From: Malacoraja senta
Lineage: Eukaryota
Assembly (NCBI GenBank): GCA_038087875.1
Contig: CM075995.1
Coordinates: 9,364,001-9,428,000, forward strand
Length of the DNA: 64,000 nt
Direction of reading: 5' to 3'
Position numbers and translations under genes: made by a program. This document shows, piece after piece, positions 13,914 to 63,489 of this stretch. Positions within the stretch are counted from its first letter, which is position 1. The number at the start of each line of letters is the position of its first letter. Below the pieces are notes generated by a model. That model made no database searches. It worked only from the letters and a program-made list of their open reading frames with translations, and was not told where the DNA came from.

Positions 13914-15254
13914 AGTGCACATTGTCATATTTTTATAATGGCCATTTTTATACATTTTGGTATCACCATGTAGAAATTACAGACGTGTTTATACATAGCC
14001 CCCCCCCATTTCAGGGCACCATAATAGACAATAGTCAATAGGTGCAGGCCATTCGACCCTTTGAACCAGCACTGCTATTCGATGTGATCATGGCTTGGCC
14101 ACTCAAGAATTGACCATTTTTTAGCTTTGAAAAACTCCGTTGTTGCTTTAGCCGTATGTTTGGGATCATTGTCTTGCTGTAGAATGAACCGCCAGCCAAT
14201 GAGTTTTGAGGCATTTGTTTGAACTTGAGCAGATAGGATGTGTCTATACACTTCACAATGCATTATACTACTACCATCAGCAGTTGTATCATCAATGAAG
14301 ATAAGTGAGCCACTACCTTCAGCAGCCATACATGCCCAGGCCATAACACCCCCACCACTGTGTTCCACAGATGAGGTGGTATGCTTTGGATCTTGGGCAG
14401 TTCCTTCTCTCCTCCATACTTTGCTCTTGCCATCACTCTGATACAAGTTAATCTTTGTCTCATCTGTCCACAAGACCTTTTTCCAGAACTGTGGTTGCTC
14501 TTTTAAGTACTTCTTGGCAAACTGTAACCTGGCCATCCTATTTTTGCGGCTAACCAGTGGTTTGCATCTTGCAGTGTAGCCTCTGTATTTCTGTTCATGA
14601 AGTCTTCTGCGGACAGTGGTCATTGACAAATCCACACCTGACTCCTGAAGAGTGTTTCTGATCTGTCGGACAGGTGTTTGGGGATTTTTCTTTATTATAG
14701 AGAGAATTCTTCTGTCATCAGCTGTGGAGGTCTTCCTTGGCCTGCCAGTCCCTTTACAATTAGTAAGCTCACCAGTGCTCTCTTTCTTCTTAATGATGTT
14801 CCAAACAGTTGATTTTGATAAGCCTAAGGTTTGGCTGATGTCTCTAACCATTTTATTCTTGTTTGACTTTCATTGGCACAACTTTGGTCCTCATGTTGAT
14901 AAACAGCAATAAAAGTTTCCAACGGTGATGGAAAGACTGGAGGAAAGACTAGGTGCTGAGAGCTCTCTTATACCTGCATTAAGGAGGCAATTAAACACAC
15001 CTGAGCAATTACAAACACCTGTGAAGCCATGTGTCCCAAACATTATGGTGCCCAGAAATGGGGGGGACTATGTATAACCACAGCTGTAATTTCTACATGG
15101 TGAAACCAAAATGTATAAAAATGGCCTTTATTAAAATCTGACAATGTGCACTTTAACCACATGTGATTGTTTCTATTACAAATCTCAAATTGTAGAGTAC
15201 AGAGGCAAATAAATAAATGATGGGTCTTTGTCCCAAACATTATGGAGGGCACTG
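13914..15254 (-). mobile_element. Tc1-family DNA transposon (IR/DR type), internally deleted
   Basis: ORF 14075-14851: HTH with GRPRK, WKKVLWTDE, QQDNDPKH, truncated at WPS. The about 210-bp TIR at 15042-15254 has an internal direct repeat (tgtcccaaacattatgg). A partial inverted copy lies at 13914-14025. Confidence 0.92.
14075..14894 (-). pseudogene. Tc1 transposase pseudogene
   Basis: ATG at 14894 (MRTKVVPMKVK) reaches a stop and is out of frame with the 258-aa ORF. The third catalytic residue (E) region is replaced by CR1 tail sequence. Confidence 0.85.
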
Positions 15255-42940: not shown

Positions 42941-43915
42941 ATGGCTGACTGGTTAAGTATGTACGGTTATAGCGGCGACACGGGCGAACCCGAACAGAGA
43001 GGGACCCAGTGGGCCACCGCAACTGAAGACCGGCCCGGCGGGCCACCCTCGGTTACGTGTGGCGGCAGGCCTGGCTCGCTGCCGCGCAGAAGGTGGGCTA
43101 CTGCCTGCAGGGGAAGCTCAGAAACCTCCCAGCTCGGCCCCGACGACCAGAGAGTCAAGGAGGAGCAAATAGTGAAAGGCCTGGATAGAGTGGATGTGGA
43201 GAGGATGTTTCCACTAGTGGGAGAGTCTAGGACCAGAGGGCACAGCCTCAGAATAAAAAGGACATGCCTTTACGAAGGATATCAAGAGGAATTTCTCTAG
43301 TCAGAGGGTGGTGAATCTGCGGAATTCATTGCCACAGACGGCTGTGGAGGCCAAGTCATTGGATATTTTTAAGGCGGAGATTGATAGATTCTTGATTAGT
43401 ACGGGTGTCAAGGGTTATGGGACGAAGGCAGGAGAATGGGGTTAGGTGGGAAAGTTAGATCAGCCATGATTGAATGGCGTAGACTTGATGGGCCGAATGG
43501 CCTAATTCTGCTCCTGTAACTATGGGAACTTAGGATGGGAACCTAGGATAGGAAGAACGGATGCGAGGATTGGGCCGGTAGGAGAGGGACTGGGGTAATG
43601 CGTCCAGCGCCTTCAAGGTGGGCTGCAGGAGGAGCCCCCGGGACACAGAGGCGGTCGGGCGAGGAGAGGAGAGGGACGTGGGTCGGCAGGCCGAGTTGGT
43701 CGAGGGTGACGGAGGAGGCCCAGCAGTAGCCTAGGGCTCGCCTGGATCTGCTGCCCCTCCAGTACATGGAGTCCATCGACCGGACTTCGGACTTTATCCT
43801 GGCGCCAAAACATTGGCCACCCACCAATGACTCCGCCAATCCTCGCCCCCAACTGGCCGAGACCGTTACCTGGGTTCCAATTCCATACTGAGAATCTGAA
43901 TAAGGGTCGCCTCCC

Positions 43916-44241
43916 GAAACGTCACCTATCCATGTTCTCCAGAGATGCTGCCTGACCCGCTGAGTTACTCCAGCACTCTGTGAAACGTCACCAATCCATG
44001 TTCTCCACAGATGCTGCCTGACCCGCTGAGTTACTCCAGCACTCTGTGAAACGTCACCAATCCATGTTCTCCACAGATGCTGCCTGACCCGCTGAGTTAC
44101 TCCAGCACTCTGTGAAACGTCACCTATCCATGTTCTCCAGAGATGCTGCCTGACCCGCTGAGTTACTCCAGCACTCTGTGAAACGTCACCTATCCATGTT
44201 CTCCACAGATGCTGCCTGACCCGCTGAGTTATTCCAGCACT
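43916..44241 (+). repeat. Tandem array, 5 x 66 bp, of a Penelope terminal-repeat segment
   Basis: Unit gaaacgtcacctatccatgttctccagagatgctgcctgacccgctgagttactccagcactctgt starts at 43916, 43982, 44048, 44114 and 44180. Confidence 0.92.
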
Positions 44242-47938: not shown

Positions 47939-50344
47939 GTAAGTACCGACCAGACTCTTCACAAGATCATCAGTGACACGAGCAGAATTAGGCCATTCGG
48001 CCCATCAAGTCATGGCTGATCGATCTCTCCCTCCTAACCCCATTCGCCTGCCTTCTCCCCATAACCCCTGACACCCGTACTAATCAGGAATCTGCCAATG
48101 TCAGCCTTAAATATATCCGCTGACTTGGCCTCCACAGCCGTCTGTGGCAATGAATTCCACAGATTCACCGCCCTCTGACTCAAGAAATTCCTCCTCATCT
48201 CCTTCCTAAAAGTACGTCCTTTAATTCTGAGGCTGTGACCTCTGGTCCTAGACTCTCCCACTGGTGAAAACGGTTTCCCTCTTACCCTCCCCACCTCCCC
48301 CACATAAAAAGACTAACAAACCTCCAAAAACATACCTTTAAACAGACTAAAAATAACAAAAAGACAAAAAAGCAGACAGACTGTAGGCAGAGGCTGCCAT
48401 CATACGGCGCCCCCTGGTGGACATCTTGCAATAAATGTATCTCGCAGTAATCGTAAGAATTCTCCCAACTCTGCTAGCCCTTACTGTCCCCTCCCCTTCA
48501 TCAGCCCTCTGGTTGTCACCTCCCATCCCCCAGCCCTCGGGCTCCTCCTCCGCCTTTTTTCCTTTATTCCTTTCTTCTCCCCATCCCCTATCAGTCTGAA
48601 GAAGGGTTTCGGCCCGAAACGTTGCCTATTTCCTTCGCTCCATAGATGCTGCTGCACCCGCTGAGTTTCTCCAGCATTGTTGTGTACCTACAATAAATGT
48701 AAACTTGTACTTGAAACGTCATCCTTCTAAACTCCAGCGAGTACAGGCCCAGTGCCATCAAACATTCATCATATGTTAACCTACTTATCCTTTTACCAGG
48801 ATGTCGCCAGGACCCGATGGTCTGAGCCATAGGGAGAGCTTGGGTCTCTATTCCATGGAGCGCAGGAGGATGAGGGGAGATCTTATAGAGGTGTACAAAA
48901 TCATGATAGGAATAGATCGGGTAGACGCACAGAGTCTCACCCAGAGTAGGGGAATCGAGGACCAGAGGACGTAGGTTTAAGGTAAAAGGGAAAAGGTTTT
49001 AAGGGTGGTGGGTGTATGGAACAAGCTGCCAGAGGAGGTAGTTGAGGCAGGGACTGTCCCAACATTTAAGAAACAGCTAGACAGGTACATGGATAGGACA
49101 GGTTTAGAGGGATATGGGCGAAAGCGGCAAGGTGGAACTAGTGTGAATGGGACATATCGGCCGGTGTGGGCAGGTTGGGCCAAATGGCCTGTTTCCACGC
49201 TCTATGACTTGATGGGCCGAATGCTTCCAATGCCTTATGGTCCTATGTTTGATGATCTTACTAATGTTGCTGCAGCAACCATACCACTGTGCCACCCCAT
49301 TCATCATGGCATGGTGTTCAGCACACACATTGTGACTGAAGGCCGCCCTCTTCTGTGCTTTTATTTATTAGAATATTTAAGACTGAGGTGAGAAAAAATG
49401 TTGTCACCCAGAGAGTTGTGAATTTGTGGAATTCCCTACCACAGAGGGCAGTGGAGGCCAAGTCACTGGATGGATTTAAGAGAGAGTTAGATAGAGCTCT
49501 AGGGGCTAGTGGAGTCAAGGGATATGGGGAGAAGGCAGGCACGGGTTATTGATAGGGGACGATCAGCCATGATCACAATGAATGGCGGTGCTGGCTCGAA
49601 GGGCCGAATGGCCGCCTCCTGCACCTATTTTCTATGTTTCTATGTTCTACCTCAAGAAAACCACATTATAGATTGTTATGGCACCTTTCAGCTGCCCACT
49701 GGGGTTGAATTTCTAGGCACTCATTTTTAGATGTTGTGGTTCAACTCGAGATGGTACAGATCCTGTAAGATAGATTGGAACTTCTACATTTGTAGGAAGG
49801 AACTGCAGGTGCTGGTTCACACCGAAGGTAGACACAAAATGCTGGAGTAACTCAACGGGGAACACAGCATCTCTGGAGAAAAGCAATAGGTGACGTTTTG
49901 GGTCGATACCCTTCATCTTCAGAAGGGTTTTGACCCGAAACGTCACCTTTCCTCCAGAAATGCTGCCTGAACCGCTGTGTTACTCCTGCACTTTGTGTTT
50001 ATCTTTGGAACGTCTACAGCCTACACATAATTACAGGGTGACACTATCCTACACCCACTAGGGACAATTTTTACATTTACCAAGCCAATTAGCCTACATA
50101 CCTGTACGTCTTTGGAGTGTGGGAAGAAACCGAAGATCTCTGAGAAAACCCACGCAGGTCACGGGGGGACGTACAAACTCCGTACAGACAGCACCCATAG
50201 TCAGGATGGAACCCGGGTCTCCGGCGCTGCAGTCGCTGTAAGGCAAAAACTATACCGCAGCGCCACCGCGACTGCCCGTGCTACCAGAGGTTAATTAAAT
50301 TTGCAATGTATCGTACTGCCTTTTCAGCCTTCCTGCTCGCATAT

Positions 50345-50887
50345 TCAGTTTAGTTTCGAGGTACAACGCGCAAACAGGCCCTTTGGCCCACCGAGTCCTC
50401 GCCGATCAGCGATCACCCATTCACACTAGTTCTATCCTACACAATAGGGACAATTTACAGGAGCCAATTAACCTACAAACCTGTACGCCTTTGGAGTGTG
50501 GGGGGAAACCGGAGAAAACCCACAAATTCACAGTGAGAACGTACACACTCCATAAAGACAGCGCCCGTAGTCAGGATCGAACCTGGATCTCTGGAGCTGT
50601 AAGGCTGCAACTCCATAAAGACAGCACCCATAGTCAGGATCGAACCTGGATTTCTAGAGCTGTAAGGCAGCAACTCCATAAAGACAGCGGCCATAGTCAG
50701 GATCGAACCTGGATCTCTAGAGCTGTAAGGCTGCAACTTCATAAAGACAGCGGCCATAGTCAGGATCGAACCTGGATCTCTGGAGCTGTAAGGCTGCAAC
50801 TCCATAAAGACAGCGGCCATAGTCAGGATCGAACCTGGATCTCTAGAGCTGTAAGGCTGCAACTCTACCGCTGCGCCACTGTGCCGC
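50345..50887 (-). mobile_element. V-SINE with 5 tandem 63-bp copies of its B-box region (50548-50862)
   Basis: Unit ctccataaagacagc...ggatcgaacctgg...gcaa starts at 50548, 50611, 50674, 50737 and 50800. Confidence 0.88.
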
Positions 50888-50927
50888 TCTAAACTAAACT
50901 AAACTAAACTAAACTGAATTTGAGTAA

Positions 50928-51157: not shown

Positions 51158-51226
51158 TAACTTCCACTTGTCACTCAACTATTGACATCATAAAGGTCCT
51201 GTTATTTTTTGTCTGTTTTCCCGAAG

Positions 51227-51328
51227 GAAACTTGACCAAACACATGAAATCCAAGGCTCATAGCAAGAAGTGCGTGGAAATAGGAGTGTCAGCTGGTCCG
51301 TTCGATGATCAAGACACGGATGACTCAG
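51227..51328 (+). CDS. HIVEP1: HIVEP1 coding exon (102 nt, phase 1/1): (G)[33 protein letters not shown]
   Basis: Acceptor gttttcccgaag at 51226 and donor G|GTATGG at 51329. Completes the C2H2 finger begun in the previous exon (CNYC...HMKSKAH). Confidence 0.95.
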
Positions 51329-53442
51329 GTATGGATCATTCTCTCCTCATGGGTCACCTGAGCCAGTGAGTAGGATGGTCAAATAACCACAGTAGCTTTC
51401 ACTGCTTCCTGTCCCAGTACTTTTCTGTTGTCCATTTAGTTTATTCAATTGTCATGTATACCAAGGGACAGTGAAAAGCTTTTTTGTTGCTTGCTATCCA
51501 GTCAATAGAGAGAGACTATACATGATTACAATCGAGCCGCCCACCGTGTACAGAAACAGGATGAAGGGAATTAAATTTAGCGCAAGATAAAGTCCAGTCA
51601 AGTCTAATTAAAGATAGTCCGAGGGGCTCCAACGGTGTGCTTGGTAGCTCAGGACCGCTCTCAAGTTGGTGATAGGATGGTTCAGTTGCCTGATAACAGC
51701 CGATATGAAACTGTCCCATAATCTGGAAGAATGTTTTTTTAAAACTTTTCTGTACCTCTTGCCTAATGGGAGAGGGGATCGAATGGAGTGACTAGGGTGA
51801 GACTGATCCTTGATTATGCTGCTGGCCTTGCCGAGGCAGCATGAATGTAGTTGGAATCAATGGAAGGAAGGTTGGTTTGCGTGACAGTCAAGTCTATTCC
51901 ACCATTCAATCGTGGCTGATCTATCTTTCCCTCTCAACCCCTGACACCCGTACTAATCAAGAATCTGTCAATCTCCGCCTTACAAATATCCATTGACTTG
52001 GCCTCCACAGCTGTCTGTGGCAATGAATTCCACAGATTCACCACCCTCTGACTAAAGAAATTCCTCCTCATCTCCTTTCTAAAGGCACGTCCTTTAATCC
52101 TGAGGCTGTGCCCTCTGGTCCTAGACTCTCCCACTAGTGGAAACATCCTCTCCACATCCACAGGTGACAATGAAGAGATTGACAGATTCTTGATCAGTAC
52201 AGAATAAGCGAGTTCGGTATTCCGAAAAACGCAAGGAATCATGGGATTTGTCAAAGGTCGTAAGCCATATGGGTAAATACATCTCGGCGCTATACAGTGA
52301 GTATACTTTTGGTCCGATTTTTTGTCTTTTTTTCAATGGGAGACCGGGGAGGGGTAGAACGGGCGGGCAGGGGGAGACCCACAAGCTTGTTTGTACGGAG
52401 TTTGTACGTTCTCCCCATGTGGGTTTTCTCCGGGATCTCCGGATTCCTCCCACACTCTAAAGGCTTACAGATTTGCAGGTACATTGGCTTGGTATAAATG
52501 TAAATTGTCCCTAACGTATGTAGGATAGTGTTAGTGTGCGGGGATCGCTGGTCAGCGCGGACTCGGTGAGCCGAAGGGCCTGTTTCCACGCTGTATCTCT
52601 AATGTAAAGCAAACTAAACTAAACACCACAGTAAGCTTGTCTCTGCTGAATATATATTCTGGTACATTACTGAGGACATGCTGCATACCGAAGGTACCAT
52701 CTCACAGGTTAGACAATAAACATACATACCAATTGATGATTCAAAAGGATTAAAGAAAAAATCTGCTTGCTGCCCTTAAGGTCAGGATAAGTTATCTTGG
52801 TGATGCGGCACAGAAATACAATGTCATCCGTCACCTTTGGTCTGGGTGAGACGAGACAGCCCACAACTCCATATCATCAACAACTGATCACTGGCTACAT
52901 ATATATGTTGGAGCGCTGTGTGGATCTGGTGAAGTGCAAGGATTTTTATCTTTCAAGCTTTTTGTCAGGACTTCTTACACCAATAATGCAAATGTGATTC
53001 GTTCAATTTCTCAGTTTACATTGGTATTTCTTCTATGGATGGGAAAGATTTAGAGGTATATACACCAAATGTGAGCAAATGGGATTAGCATCGTGGTCGG
53101 CATGGATGAGTTGGGCTGAAGGGCCTGTTTCCGTGTTGTTTGACTTGAGTCTATCCCATTATATAAAAGAATTGCATTTACTAACCAATGTGGTTCTTTT
53201 TGTGAAATATCAATGTGCTTCTCGATTCCCCTACTCCGGAGAAAAGACCATCTATTTTCTTCATGATTTTATACATCTCTATACGATCACGCCTCAGTTT
53301 CCTGCACTCCAAGGAATAAAGTCCTCGCCCGCCCAATCATTCCTTATAGCTCAGGCCTTCATATCCAGGTATCATCCTTGTGAATCTTCTCTGCACTCTT
53401 TCCAGCTTAACCACCCCCATCATATATCTTGTGAAGATAGAC

Positions 53443-53686
53443 ACAGAGTGCTGGAGTAACTCACCGGTCAGCCAGCATCTGTGGAGAACATGGATAGGTG
53501 ACGTTTCACAGAGTGCTGGAGTAACTCAGTGGGTCAGGCAGCATCTGTGGAGAACATGGATAGGTGACGTTTCACAGAGTGCTGGAGTAACTCAGTGGGT
53601 CAGGCAGCATCTGTGGAGAACATGGATAGGTGATGTTTCACAGCGTGCTGGAGTAACTCAGCGGGTCAGGCAGCATCTGTGGAGAA
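53443..53686 (-). repeat. Tandem array, about 4 x 66 bp, reverse complement of the 43916 array unit
   Basis: acagagtgctggagtaactc...ggataggtgacgtttc units start at 53443, 53508, 53574 and 53640. Confidence 0.9.
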
Positions 53687-55734
53687 AAAGAATAGGCCGA
53701 ACCCTTCTTTAGGTTAAAACCCTTCTTCAGACTAACAGTCACTCCAGTAAGTGGCAACATCTCTTCTCAAGGGTGATTGACCCAGCCCCACCAATGTCCC
53801 GGCAACAGGGTGGAGATTATGTTGGCAACTTTTGTACAATGGCTCCGAGTGAGGTGGCTTTTCTGCTCGAAGTAAGGGACGGGATGTCCGTGGGAAATGT
53901 GGAACAGTGAGCTTTACATAGAAACATAGATTTTATGTTTACATAGATACATAGAAACACTTTAAATACATGTTGGGATGTGTCAACATATTCACAAGGA
54001 TGTTGCCAGGACTCACGGGTCTGAGCTATAGGGAGATGTTAAGCAGGCTAGGACTCTATTCCTTGGAGCGCAGGAGGATGAGGGGTTCGTAAGTTCATGT
54101 TTTTAAGTGATAGGAGAAAAATTAGGCCATTTGGCCCATCAAGTCAACTCCGCCATTCAATCATGGCTGATCTATCTCTCCCTCATAACACCATTCTCCT
54201 GCCTTCTCCCCATAACCCCAGCCACCCGTACTCATCAAGAGTCTATCTGTCTCTGCCTTAAAAATATCCACTGACTTGGCCTCCACAGGGTGATCTTATG
54301 GAGGTGGACAAAATCATGAGAGGAATAGATTGGGTACACACACAGAGTCTCTTGCCCAGAGTAGGGGAATCGAGGACCAGACGGCATAGGTTTAAGGTGA
54401 GGGGGGAAAGATTGAATAGGAAACTGAAGGGTAACTTTTTGATACAAAGATTGGTGGGTGTATGAAACGAGCTGCTGCAGGAAGTAGTTGAGGCAGGTAA
54501 TATCTCAAAGTCTAAGAGACATTTAATCAGGTACATGGATAGGATAGGTTTAAAGGGGAATGGGCCTAATGCAGGCAGGTGGGACTGGTGTAGGTTGGTC
54601 GGTGTGGGCAAGTTCGGCCGATCAGTCTGCATTCCAGTAGTCAAAGAGAAAGGATAAGGAATGTTTTAATAACAACTAGAATTGAATAGTATTTGCTAAT
54701 GCTTCACTCATTTGAAATGCCGGGGTAAACAGCAATAGCTGTTTCTGATCCTAAATGATTCAACATAGTCTCACACCAAGTTGCATATGTTGGGGGATGG
54801 AATTTAACGATGTCCTCATTGACCTTGGCTGTATTTGTTTGGCCATGAAACGTTTTGAGGGAACAAGAAACTGCAGCGGTAGAGTTGCCGCCTTACAGCG
54901 CCAGAAACCCGGGTTCGATCCTGACCTCGGGCGCTGTCTGTACGGAGTTTGCACATTCTCCCGGAGACCTCGTGGGTTTTCTCTTGGTGCTCCGGTTTCC
55001 TCCCACACTCCAAAGACGTACAGGTTTGTAGGTTGATTGGCCTCGGTACATTGTAAATTGTCCCTAGTGTGTGAAGGATAATGCCAATGTACGGGGTGAT
55101 CGCTGGGCAGTGTGCGCCGAAGGGCCTGTTTCCATGCTGTATCTCTAAAGTCTGAGATGCTGGTTAGCACAAAAGGACACAAAGTGCTAGAGTAACCTAG
55201 CGGGTCAGGCAGCATTTCTGAAGTGGGGACCCCCCTTTTTTTGAGACATTTCACCCGTATCATTTGGGCGTCACTTCTAATCCTGATTCTTTTAGTAGTC
55301 TCCTCCCACAGTCAACTTTATGGCCATTGCAGATAGTAGAACTACTTTCCTTCCCTTCATCTCAAAAATAAAAAATTCCAATGGTGCATTTTAGAATCTC
55401 CCAAGGGCTGCCAGAATTTCCAATCAACCATGTTTTCTTTTAGACTTCAGAGACACAGCGTAGAAAGTGGCCCTTTGGCTCACCGAGTCCATGGTGACCA
55501 GTGGTCACCCCATACATGGCTGGTCAGAAAGCATCTCTTGTGCTGTACTGATCTATGTTTAAGAAAGAATTGCAGATGCTGGTAAAATCAAAGATAGACA
55601 CAAAATGCTGGAGTAACATAGCAGGTGAGGCAGCATCTATGGAGAGAAGGAATTGCCGATGTTTCGGGTCGAGACACTTCTTCAGACTGATCTATGTACT
55701 GCTCTATGTTCAGTTGGAGGAAATAAGTACTACA

Positions 55735-59080: not shown

Positions 59081-59520
59081 AGTCATGGAGTGATACAGCG
59101 TGGAAACAGGCCCTTCAGCCCAACTTGCCCACACTGGCCAACATGTCCCATCTACACTAGTCATAGAGTGATACAGCATGGAAACAGGCCCTTCAGCCCA
59201 ACATGTCCCATCTACACTAGTCATAGAGTGGACTCACCAGCCAACATGTCCCATCTACACTAGTCATAGAGTGATACAGCATGGAAACAGGCCCTTCGGC
59301 CCAACTTGCCCACACTGGCCAACATGTCCCATCTACACTAGTCATAGAGTGATACAGCATGGAAACAGGCCCTTCAGCCCAACTTGCCCACACTGGCCAA
59401 CATGTCCCATCTACACTAGTCATAGAGTGATACAGCATGGAAACAGGCCCTTCAGCCCAACATGTCCCATCTACACTAGTCATAGAGTGGACTCACCAGC
59501 CAACATGTCCCATCTACACT
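59081..59520 (-). repeat. Higher-order tandem array of a CR1 3' tail (units of 78-60-43-78-78-60-43 bp)
   Basis: All units run agtcat(a/g)gag...catctacact. The array is contiguous with the CR1 fragment at 59521-59780. Confidence 0.88.
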
Positions 59521-60875
59521 AGTCCCACCTGCCCGCGTTTGGTCCATATCCCTCCAAACCTGTCCTATCCATGCACCTGTCTTTTAACTGTTTTTTCAAT
59601 GTTGTGATAGTCCCAGCCTCAACTACCTCCTCTAGCAGCTCGTTCCATGCACCCACCACCCTCTGTGTGAAAAAGTTACCCCTCAGATTCCTTTTAAATC
59701 TTTTCCCCTTCATCCTGAACCTATGTCCTCGATTCACCTACTCTGGGCAAGAGACTCTGTGCATCCACCCAATCTATTCCTTTTATTTTTCTTGCTCATG
59801 TTGCATGAGTCATGCTTGGCTGAGATATTTAAACATGAAATGAAAATGCTAAACATCTTTTCTTTCTTCCAGAAGAGGCAGGCAATTAATACTTTATGGG
59901 GAGGAGAGCTTGTAATGTTAGCAGCTAGAACTACATTTCGCCTTTGATCTGTGTTCATTGTTAATCTCAGCAGGCAAGGGTAAACGCACATTTACAATGT
60001 CATGTTCAGTTTTGGTCGCCATGTTATGGGAAAGACGTTGTCAAGCTTGAAAGGGTGCAGAGAAGATTTACCAGGATGTTGCCAGGTAAATTACCAGCTC
60101 CAGGGAGAGGTTGAGCAGGCTAGGAGGGGGGGCCATTTTATAGAGGTGTACTAAATCATGAGAGGAATAGACCAGGTAAACGCCAGAGTCCGTTGCCCAG
60201 AGCAGGGGAATCGAGAACCAGAGGACAGGTTTGTGAGGGGAAAAAAGATTTAATAGGAACCTGAGGGGTAACTTTTTTTTACACAAAACGGTGGTGGGTG
60301 TACGGAACGAGCAGCTGGAGGAGGAAGTCGAGGCAAGTACGTTTAAGAAACATTTAGACAGGGACATGGATAGGATAGGTTTAGAGGAATAAAGTGAATG
60401 CTCACAACCTTTTTCCCAGCATAGAGGATTCTAAAACTAGAGAACATAGACTTAAGGTGAGAGGGGAAAGATTTAAGATGGATATCAGGGGAACATCTTC
60501 ACTGAAAGAGTAGTCTGTATTTGGTTTTACCTTGCACTAAACGTTATTCCCTTATCATGTATCTATACACTGTGAATGGCTTGATTGTAATCATGTGTTG
60601 TCTTTCCGCTGACTGGTTAGCACGCAACAAAAGCTTTTCACTGTACCTCGATACACGTGCCAATAAACTGACCTGAAATTGAATAACCTGACCAGAAAAG
60701 CTATAGCAGCGGATACAGTAATTACCTTTATAAGACATTTGGACAGATATATGGATAGGAAGGGGTTAGAGGGCCAAATGGGACTACCCCAATGTGCTAA
60801 CTTGCTTGTCATGGACAAGCTGGGCCTGGTTCCATGCTGTACAGCTCTATGACTCTTAAGAGAAATAAGATTGAA

Positions 60876-62411
60876 TTAGACTAAGTGGGACCTGTTGGGT
60901 CCCTGTCACACGGGAGGCTTGGTCCCCCAACGTAACACGGTCCCCAATGCAATATTCCACCACTCACCCGTTCTCCCAATGCAATCTAGTAGTAAGTAAG
61001 TAAGTAAGTTTTATTTATATAGCACGTTTTAAGTCAACTCGCATTGACACCAAAGTGCTTTACATAAAATAAATAATAAGTTTCCATACAAACCATAGAA
61101 AAAGGTTAAAAAAGAAAACAAATGGACACAACACATTATAGGGTTCAACACAAACGTCCCCCCACAGCAGAATCAACATTTTCCACTGTGGGGAATCTGT
61201 CCCCCCACCAACGCAATATTGCACCACTCATGCATAGCCCCCTGACTGCGCACGCACGGCTCATTTCCCCTCAACCCCCACCACTCCATCTTCCCTCTTC
61301 TTTCCCCTCCCCAATCCCTCCCTCACCTCTCTCTCCCTCTCCTTTCCCCTACCCTCAGTCATGCCCTCCATAACTCCTCTCCCTTCCCTACCCCCTCCTC
61401 TCCCTCTATCCCCCTCTCCTCACCCCTTCCTCTCCCTCAATCCCCCCACTCTCCCTCCTCCCCTCCCCAGGATATTTCCCCTCTCCTCCTCCCCTCCCCC
61501 AATCCCTCTCTCACCTCTCCCTCCCTCTCCTTTCCCCTATCCTCAGTCACTTCCTCCCTCCATAAAAAGCAGCATCTACAGTTCCTTCCTCCACAGGTCA
61601 TTCATTGTTAGCTGTGGTTTAGATCCCGTTGACTTGACGATTGGACCAGTTTGCATCATGTGTGTGTGTGTGTGTGTGTTACTCAAACTCCGCGCAAACT
61701 GCTTGGCCACCCTGCAACCCGACTCACTCTCCCTCCCTCTGCCCACTCCAGCTCAGCCGCTACTCAGCCCATCCCCACCCTGTCCGACCGCCCACTGCTG
61801 CCGCTCAGCCCATCCCCGCCCTGCCTGCCCGCCTACCTGCTCGCTGTTGCGGCCGGGCCACAAGGGGGGATGGAGTCGGTGTTGGTCACGGTGGGCACCA
61901 CGGGTTTCGATGAGCTGGTGGAGGAGATCTCCGAGAGGGCCGTGAGGGGGAGTTTCCGCAACGGCGGCAGCGGAGGAGATGGACCCGGGGGGACGGGTAG
62001 ACGGGACCGCTATTGCCACAGAGGGTGTGCGGGGGAGAGGGGTGAGTGATGAGGGAGAGAGAGACGGGACCAGAGCCTCCACTGGGTCACTGAACCCGCG
62101 GCCGTCGCCGGTGGGGCAGGAAGGGGCTTCGCCGTCCCAGCCGTGGCATTGACTGACAGGAGAGCAGACCAATCTGCGTGGTGCTGACTGAAGGAATCTG
62201 CGCATGCGTGTTTTTAAAGATTTTTAAACCTCGATAACTTTTATTATATACCACCGATCAGAACGAAACTTGTTGCACTCGCAGTACAGGAGAACGGTGA
62301 GTAAACTGGCGAAAAATTGTAGGACTATCGCGTACCGTTTTTGCGGAAATAGCAAAACCCGCAAACCGGAAGATCACAAGATCAGAGTTTTAGTTATGTA
62401 TAGAGGATAGA
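60876..62411 (-). mobile_element. Non-autonomous Helitron (about 1.5 kb) with captured sequence
   Basis: The minus strand starts A^TCTATCCTCTATACATAAC (62411) and ends GGGACC-CAACA-GGTCCC hairpin, then 11 nt ending CTAA^T (60876). No TSD; inserted between A and T. Confidence 0.78.
61870..61950 (+). pseudogene. ALG13: ALG13-like 5' coding fragment (MESVLVTVGTTGFDELVEEISERAVRG)
   Basis: VTVGTTxFDxL directly after an ATG matches the recalled N-terminus of the ALG13 UDP-GlcNAc transferase (MKCVFVTVGTTSFDDL). No downstream ALG13 exons seen. Confidence 0.72.
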
Positions 62412-62538
62412 TACAATGTGGCCCAAGTAAATTGGAATCAAAGCTTAGCTGGGAAAGCTCATTGAACACTGGGACACCTTTAAGATGAAGATGTTTCCTT
62501 TGCAACGTAGATACATTCCTTAGTTTAGTTTATTGTCA

Positions 62539-62858
62539 AAGCCCTGTCCCACTGTACGAGTTCATTCCAAGAGCTCTCCCGAGTTTGCCCTGATTCGAAC
62601 TCGGAGATTTACGGTAATGGCCGCTCGTAGGTACTCGGGGCTCTCGTGAACATTTTTCAACATGTTGAAAAATCTTCACGAGTCTTCACGAGCTTACTAT
62701 GTTTCCCAAGTACCTGCCGTTAGCATTACGAGCCTCTAAGAGACGTCCCCGAGCTCCGACGTACCCGCTACATTCATTCTACGTGCTTACCACGAGTTTG
62801 ATTTTTTTTTTAAACTCGGGGGAGCTCTTGAATGAACTCGTACAGTGGGACAGGGCTT
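62539..62858. mobile_element. Harbinger-type MITE (320 bp)
   Basis: TIR aagccctgtcccactgtacgagttcatt / aatgaactcgtacagtgggacagggctt. TCA duplicated at 62536-62538 and 62859-62861. Confidence 0.85.
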
Positions 62859-63489
62859 TCACATGTACCGAGACTAAAGACTAGCAGCAAATGTAAAGAG
62901 GAATCCAAAAAATATTATAAATAGATAACCAGGAAAAAGGTTAAATGAGAAGAGGTGGGTCAGTCGATGACCAGAAAGAAGTCTATTCACGAAGGCAAGG
63001 ATGCCGTTCACGATTTTTAGTTTGTTTTGGGTGGCACGATGGCGGAGCTGTGGAGCTGCTGCCTCACAGCGCCACAGACCCGGGTTCGACAATTTAACAT
63101 TTAACCGAGCCAATCAGGCTTGCAACTCAATAGAAGGAATGGGTGATGCTTCAAGTCGAGACCCTTCTACCAACTGAGAGTCAGGGGAGAGGTAGACACA
63201 GGGATATGGAAGGGTGAGGTGTGAAAACGAGAGATCAGAGGGGCGAAGATCAAGGAAAAAGTAGAGCAGTTCATTGTTAGCTGAGGGGAAGGCTTCTCTT
63301 CTTCTGTCGTGTGTCTTTTAGATCTGCAGCTCCGTTGAGGTGAGCCAGGCCAACGTGTCATCGTCCAGGTCAATCAGACCTCGTTCACCATTCGGTGGCC
63401 GGTGTTTGGGGCAACTGGTGACGATGTGCTCCACTGTCTGTGTTGGGTCCCCACACTCGCTGTCCACGAGGCCCCACCTTGAGGGGAAG

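Follow-up and report, generated by a model that had tools for sequence, protein, structure and literature searches.

A non-autonomous Helitron with a captured ALG13 first exon in an intron of HIVEP1 in the skate Malacoraja senta

The element and its setting in HIVEP1

The window analysed here is a 64,000-nucleotide stretch of Malacoraja senta DNA (GenBank assembly GCA_038087875.1, contig CM075995.1, forward-strand positions 9,364,001 to 9,428,000), and positions are counted from its first base unless a contig is named. A long open reading frame at 30.7–36.8 kb belongs to HIVEP1 (ZNF40); it matches the Amblyraja protein at 96% over the 221 residues searched, and the named top matches are all ZNF40/HIVEP1. 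When the Amblyraja HIVEP1 protein was mapped on the window plus 100 kb downstream, exons were located at 7.5, 30.7–36.8, 39.7, 47.8, 51.2–51.3, 78.9–79.4 and 84.6–85.7 kb. The element described below lies inside a HIVEP1 intron, as a sequence-only reading of the window had proposed. This is a phase-1 intron between positions 51328 and 78928, before the last two exons and downstream of all zinc-finger exons, and from the element it is 16.5 kb downstream to the start of the following exon, at G000:C19:9442928.

The element (Table 1) is a gene-capturing non-autonomous Helitron, an assignment that is real and well supported. Its 5′ end on the minus strand reads A|TCTATCCTCTATACATAAC... and continues, from 62411, as TCTATCC-TCTATACATAACTAAAACTCTG, and the family consensus likewise opens with TCTAT; the core common to the family begins at 62404, and the outer 7 nt represent a TCTA-like extension that is frequent among copies. 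At the opposite end, a 17-nt hairpin (GGGACC-CAACA-GGTCCC) stands seven bases from the CTAA. The canonical Helitron ends recognised in the sequence-only reading (TC after A, hairpin, CTAA and T) are all present, but the 11 nt reported there as the distance from the hairpin to CTAA is the distance to the end of the element. CTAA is itself a variant. Among 43 3′ ends recovered from copies, the last four bases are CTAG, the family form, in 30 and CTAA in 3, with T as the next base in 32. The 3′ hairpin folds as proposed but, taken alone, is no better than shuffled sequences (z = −0.79), although it is conserved among copies. An Rfam search of positions 60500–62900 returned no match.

In comparison with other copies, the window copy has lost ~95 bp near 62100 and gained the ~206-bp nested insertion, the tail of which is presumably L2/SINE-like. 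This nested piece is abundant in polyA RNA, on the minus strand, and the reads likely derive from its other copies. A CpG-rich block had been noted at about 61690–62210; its CpG observed/expected ratio is indeed 0.66, versus 0.52 for the whole window. Positions 61924 and 61936 are A in most copies but G in the window copy, as in the donor gene; both are G in 3 of 70 copies, which suggests that the window copy may have branched early or been converted later. A MITE-like element with long terminal inverted repeats lies at ~62540–62860, ~130 bp from the Helitron 5′ end, and has a very high copy number in all sequencing runs compared.

Table 1. Coordinates of the Helitron, its parts and the preceding HIVEP1 exon in the window
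Feature	Position	Strand	Remarks
HIVEP1 exon preceding the element, with phase-1 donor	51223–51328	+	
Non-autonomous Helitron, ALG13-carrying subfamily	60876–62411	−	Ends common to dispersed copies; consensus (1,366 nt) versus window 82–94%
Helitron 3′ terminus	60876–60903	−	Hairpin 60903–60887; CTAA 60879–60876; then T
Nested retroelement-like insertion, (TTAC)n tail, flanked by two AATCT repeats	60988–61193	−	Missing from other copies; RNA joint 60984–61204
Purine-rich low-complexity tract, length varies	61270–61564	−	Common to sister subfamilies
Captured ALG13 block, antisense to the Helitron	61565–62112	+	Donor G000:C7:5532230–5532858; right boundary approximate
Region upstream of the ALG13 ATG, likely 5′ UTR plus proximal promoter; 335 bp in donor; CpGs decayed in window copy	61565–61869	+	
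ALG13 exon-1 coding part	61870–61947	+	26 codons versus 27 in donor, through loss of one codon; two missense changes
Site of the authentic ALG13 exon-1 splice donor, inactive	61948–61953	+	GGGAGT versus GTGAGT in gene; GT in 58/70 copies
Cryptic GTGAGT, captured intron-1 sequence	62042–62047	+	Phase 1, in frame with next HIVEP1 exon; putative donor
Helitron left (5′) segment, ~300 bp, TC start after A	62113–62411	−	Also in ALG13-free sister subfamilies

The captured ALG13 block and its copies

The ATG at 61870 opens an ALG13 N-terminus, as had been read from the sequence: 24 of 27 residues are identical to the N-terminus of the skate ALG13 protein P0121. The 27-residue peptide alone gives a weak match to Pfam GT28_C (E = 0.064; profile positions 2–21) and found no match in a PDB search. 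The true ALG13 gene, for which the genome was searched, is complete and lies on another contig, G000:C7, where exons 2 and 3 were located by a Pfam PF04101 search (2 of 23 matches, the other 21 being long open reading frames that match the C-terminal part of the profile). Exon 1, at C7:5532565, has 81 nt or 27 codons followed by GTGAGT, and exons 2 and 3 lie downstream in frame; exon 2 is 100% identical to P0121, and exon 3 matches yeast Alg13 structures (E = 9e-6). Positions 329–946 of the family consensus are the reverse of C7:5532858–5532230 (618 bp), with 81% identity when gaps are included and 88–98% at aligned non-CpG sites. The block consists of 335 bp upstream of the ATG, the 81-nt exon 1 and ~210 bp of intron 1, and because it contains intron and upstream DNA, capture occurred at the DNA level.

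A genome search with the ALG13 block returned 551 candidates, 40 of which were scored and, apart from the window itself, stand at 80–85%. A 23-mer from the exon, with up to 2 mismatches allowed, is found at 281 places, one of which is the ALG13 gene, and its control at none. Since 36 of 46 copies chosen without this 23-mer would pass the same pattern, the number of copies can reasonably be put at ~360. A 24-mer taken from the 5′ terminus occurs at 1,935 places (control, 0), and the exon is present at 5 of 30 such ends (the first 30 exact matches, ordered by position), which corresponds by proportion to ~320 copies. Ninety loci were examined, 81 of them with the exon, and removal of 11 duplicates left 70 copies, in which the 5′ end is present in 55, the 3′ end in 43 and both in 32; the 1,366-nt consensus was built on 31 full-length copies. 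Host-gene capture in a cartilaginous fish, including the ALG13 upstream region, had been proposed from the window alone, and it is borne out by a true locus elsewhere and by hundreds of copies with termini in common. The capture event is family-wide and not special to the HIVEP1 locus.

Insertion sites were compared in 24 copies with clean ends. A target-site duplication of at least 2 nt is absent in 23 of them, T follows the element in 22, and A precedes it in 13; TCTA repeats make the left edge hard to place. Of the suggested pattern A^TC...CTRR^T, CTRR and the following T are thus found at most 3′ ends; the window copy itself sits A|T. No orthologous empty site was visible in contigs of three organisms, where repeats swamped the comparison, and 24 joined flanks, searched for a paralogous empty site, matched only themselves or tandem artefacts. 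The family-diagnostic A at 61924 is found in 50–54 contigs of each of three other organisms, so the ALG13 subfamily is common to several species. Head-to-tail arrangements are frequent: 11 of 30 sampled 5′ ends lie directly behind another Helitron 3′ end, which in 4 cases is of the type found in RepHel-coding elements.

The median non-CpG divergence from the consensus is 4.4% (69 copies; overall 4–6%), and CpG sites are 13–20% diverged in every block. In the exon we counted 173 non-synonymous changes versus 191 expected at synonymous rates, using 61 rows that were left after 7 truncated or misaligned and 2 near-duplicate rows had been dropped. ATG, frame and GT are all kept in 28 of 70 copies. 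These patterns are consistent with a cargo that decays neutrally under methylation.

Sister subfamilies, coding partners and the route of capture

ALG13-free sister elements have the same 250–300-bp left segment, the same purine tract and the same right end. One such subfamily, with 761 candidates and the 5′ end in 29 of 30 loci (L183–L212, e.g. L188:1292–1807, plus strand), carries exon 1 of SAC3D1 in sense, together with its splice donor. The part of this cargo that was searched is 80–82% identical to SAC3D1 proteins of skates, and the similarity stops at a GT, where the protein continues. Because a search of the assembly with the SAC3D1 cargo did not find the donor gene, this capture rests on protein similarity to other skates. 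A third subfamily (1,171 candidates; L213–L242, e.g. L164:1086–1178, minus strand), which accounts for 7 of 30 sampled 5′ ends, contains a CpG-rich exon-like cassette ending in GTGAGT; the cassette had no PDB or Pfam match, and its donor was not located. In L155, L173 and L179, a sister cargo has a TATA-like ATATAAAG and, after it, a GC-rich stretch similar to a repeat in ALG13 intron 1. L119 (G000:C7, ~52882138–52884220, minus strand) is a 2.1-kb ALG13-free element with the same 3′ end, a minisatellite and two promoter-like TATA/CCGGAAGT blocks.

Most copies have four exon bases in common at which they depart from the ALG13 gene (56/70, 62/70, 66/70 and 50/70), and from this we infer a single ancestral capture. 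The left segment, purine tract and right end that the ALG13-free sisters share place the block inside a pre-existing chassis. For the same reason, capture into the interior of an existing element, by template switch or gap repair, is mildly favoured over composite or end-bypass transposition, which we rank lower, as a less probable though serious contender. Composite transposition stays in play, since flanking copies beside the donor may never have reached fixation. At the junctions, donor and chassis overlap by a 3-nt TTA on one side and by a weaker ACC on the other; as possible traces of the capture, these overlaps are suggestive only.

RepHel genes are represented in the genome by 112 matches, with open reading frames of up to 1,766 aa. 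One 1,727-aa frame contains Helitron_like_N and PIF1 domains and no endonuclease domain. RepHel elements end in CAGACCC-AAC-GGGTCTG plus CACTTGGTCTAG and the ALG13 family in GGGACCC-AAC-GGGTCCC plus ACTTAGTCTAG; the two hairpins have the same core with compensatory outer pairs, and RepHel ends are also CTAG. No long match emerged when parts of the element were compared by BLAST with 12 RepHel loci and with 10 larger RepHel regions; in the 10 regions, similarity between the RepHel elements and the ALG13 family is confined to the terminal 30 nt and to a short 5′ motif. A 3′-end match near one RepHel locus was discarded as shared sequence, since it belonged to a separate ALG13-free sister element. 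L103–L122 and L246 constitute a young RepHel Helitron family, with 93–98% identity over 4–8 kb and open frames of up to 1,766 aa, which is embedded in head-to-tail arrays of short derivatives and was possibly active recently.

Other explanations of the block and its carrier can be weighed against these data. A genuine ALG13 gene nested in HIVEP1, a retrocopy or a segmental duplicate, as opposed to transposon cargo, would account for the intact ATG and coding signature of the window copy. The complete gene, however, is on C7, and the PF04101 search found exons 2 and 3 there only; the block contains intron and upstream DNA, which is not mRNA-derived, and it is bounded by transposon ends that are common to dispersed copies. 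We give these readings virtually no weight. The direction of transfer could also be reversed, with the block originating as Helitron repeat sequence and becoming part of the ALG13 gene by insertion or exaptation; its presence in hundreds of repeat copies and once in a gene would be explained in this way. Such a reversal is already contradicted by the homologous N-terminus in sharks: the peptide that aligns with GT28_C is the conserved ALG13 N-terminus, and it was found also in one shark and one sawfish protein. Moreover, the sole long match to the element in 99 kb around the ALG13 gene is C7:5532230–5532779, no Helitron end was found beside this stretch, and 25 of 30 sampled 5′ ends lack the block, leaving the reversed direction next to inconceivable. 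Somewhat more can be said for a carrier of another type, such as a Helentron-type element or an unclassified repeat with Helitron-like ends, given that neither a coding partner with long common sequence nor an empty site was seen. We nonetheless consider it quite improbable, because the TC start, CTAG end, subterminal hairpin, T after the end, lack of duplication and head-to-tail arrays all argue for a Helitron, as does the near-identical end geometry of the RepHel-coding elements.

The account that we regard as highly probable as a whole is the following. A non-autonomous Helitron carrying, in antisense, the ALG13 upstream region, exon 1 and the start of intron 1, and present in several hundred copies, would have been mobilised in trans, likely by RepHel transposase. 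It would have multiplied by rolling-circle amplification, giving rise to head-to-tail junctions, and its copies would have been silenced through methylation. The copy in the HIVEP1 intron would then likely be an inert passenger that is decaying neutrally.

The window copy in HIVEP1 and gene starts captured elsewhere

In the window copy the true ALG13 exon-1 donor is mutated from GT to GG at 61948–61949, and its phase, 0, would in any case not fit the phase-1 HIVEP1 acceptor. The sequence-only reading missed this authentic site and listed two others, GTGAGG at 61942 and GTGAGT at 62042. Both exist, but 61942 was rejected as a donor: it is coding sequence (codons 25–26 of the exon), scores under 5 on an approximate matrix and is out of frame, so that translation would stop after 70 codons. 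On the same matrix the true donor scores 9.6 and the 62042 site 8.7, and a splice from it to HIVEP1 is predicted to join in phase 1 and to produce a 587-aa open reading frame without zinc fingers that ends at the normal HIVEP1 stop.

The window copy keeps 26 of 43 CpGs, compared with a family median of 0.69 (64 copies) and 33 of 41 in the donor, and ranks 19th of 64 from the bottom; its non-CpG divergence equals the family median. Neither CpG retention nor constraint is above that of the sister copies. RNA reads were available from one polyA run of organism J, for which the species match is uncertain (7.3 million reads, ~6% of the data; depth 0.8–4.4 over 61828–62079). In this weak test no read had the window copy's alleles (which include G at 61884, 61903 and 61949), the other allele being found in 3/3 reads at 61884, 3/3 at 61903 and 2/2 at 61924 (the family allele), and there was no joint from 61941 or 62041 among the RNA joints listed.

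The fragment had been proposed as an alternative first exon for the downstream HIVEP1 exons. Acting as an exon trap, the captured ALG13 promoter would drive a transcript spliced from 62042 into the last two HIVEP1 exons, much as HelibatN3 does in some bat genes; the available passages of PMC4778049 state that HelibatN3 can trap exons and name three bat transcripts that start in it. The fragment is co-oriented with HIVEP1, its ATG is intact, the frame is open for 57 codons, and the phase, the score and the predicted stop of the 62042 site are all suitable, so that this donor keeps the idea formally open. On the other side stand the dead true donor, a phase match that has a one-in-three chance of arising, CpG loss at or above that of the family, and the lack of reads with the window copy's alleles in a shallow RNA set; in bats, too, three is the full number of transcripts with a start site from such insertions in those passages. 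We judge an exon trap at this locus very unlikely. The alternative-first-exon proposal is not sustained, and the window copy is likely without consequence for HIVEP1.

Maize Helitrons have captured host exons and dispersed them between Helitron ends, often with fragments of several genes stacked; in contrast, each skate subfamily examined has one 5′ cassette, at the same internal position. HelibatN3 of Myotis resembles the skate element in being non-autonomous, ~1 kb in length, and loaded with a single host gene's promoter, 5′ UTR and exon 1 together with part of its intron 1, the gene being NUBPL in HelibatN3 (available passages of PMC4224331). Its cargo is also minus-oriented, according to the supplement, its copy number is high (1,000 in the text, 2,745 in a table), and it has an exon-trapping splice donor. 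The skate element differs in its gene (ALG13), its lineage and its ~280–400 copies, and while exon-trap activity is known for HelibatN3, the skate element is known from its sequence, with the true donor of the window copy mutated. The same passages describe promoter captures from 15 genes by bat Helitrons, higher copy numbers with 5′ cargo, and composite transposition documented for a bat element; ALG13 and SAC3D1 are absent from the four supplementary files searched.

In Xenopus laevis, the non-autonomous derivatives of Heli1Xen1 are, like the skate family, vertebrate Helitrons with captured coding fragments. The available passages of PMC12001565, which do not mention cartilaginous fish, report 19 captured fragments in 64 insertions, 17 of the 19 from gene 5′ ends and with at most 17 per fragment. 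Capture there is rare and low-copy, whereas single captures in the skate reach hundreds of copies. The word 'Helitron' is absent from the main text of the little skate genome paper (PMC10115646), and none of the elasmobranch Helitron papers listed, judged by title or the start of the abstract, concerns capture. We found no paper on a Helitron with ALG13, SAC3D1 or promoter capture in cartilaginous fish among the literature searched. The ALG13-carrying Helitron is thus apparently undescribed in skates, while the pattern of gene-start capture is already known from bats.

A broader reading, which we put forward tentatively and with less than even confidence, adds skates to vesper bats as a second vertebrate lineage with repeated uptake of gene starts by one Helitron family. 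The cargoes concerned, ALG13, SAC3D1 and one or more CpG-rich exon-like cassettes that end in GTGAGT, would all have entered at the same internal position. Each would then have been carried to hundreds of sites as a ready unit of promoter, exon and donor, and some of these units may now start chimeric transcripts. The boldest form of this reading, a zinc-finger-less HIVEP1 isoform arising from the window copy, is on its own highly doubtful. In the bat data Helitrons with gene 5′ ends seemed to amplify more, and in Xenopus capture is infrequent (passages cited above). In the skate family two or more first-exon cargoes have been identified, each in hundreds of copies, on a chassis that cargo-free sisters also have. 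The family offers an independent case for testing the 5′ bias and for deciding whether capture proceeds by internal repair or by end bypass. Candidate exon traps are the 28 sampled copies, out of 70, in which ATG, frame and donor are all intact, and the family level is of more interest than the HIVEP1 locus. For work on skates, such copies are a source of error in mapping reads, calling methylation and annotating genes at ALG13 and SAC3D1.

The HIVEP1 introns in the window contain further repeats. A Tc1/mariner-like transposase fragment was recognised by eye, from the list of open reading frames, at 14075–14869 on the minus strand in another intron, and tandem arrays of SINE/LINE fragments occupy 43500–44200, 50300–50900, 53350–53700 and 59100–59520.
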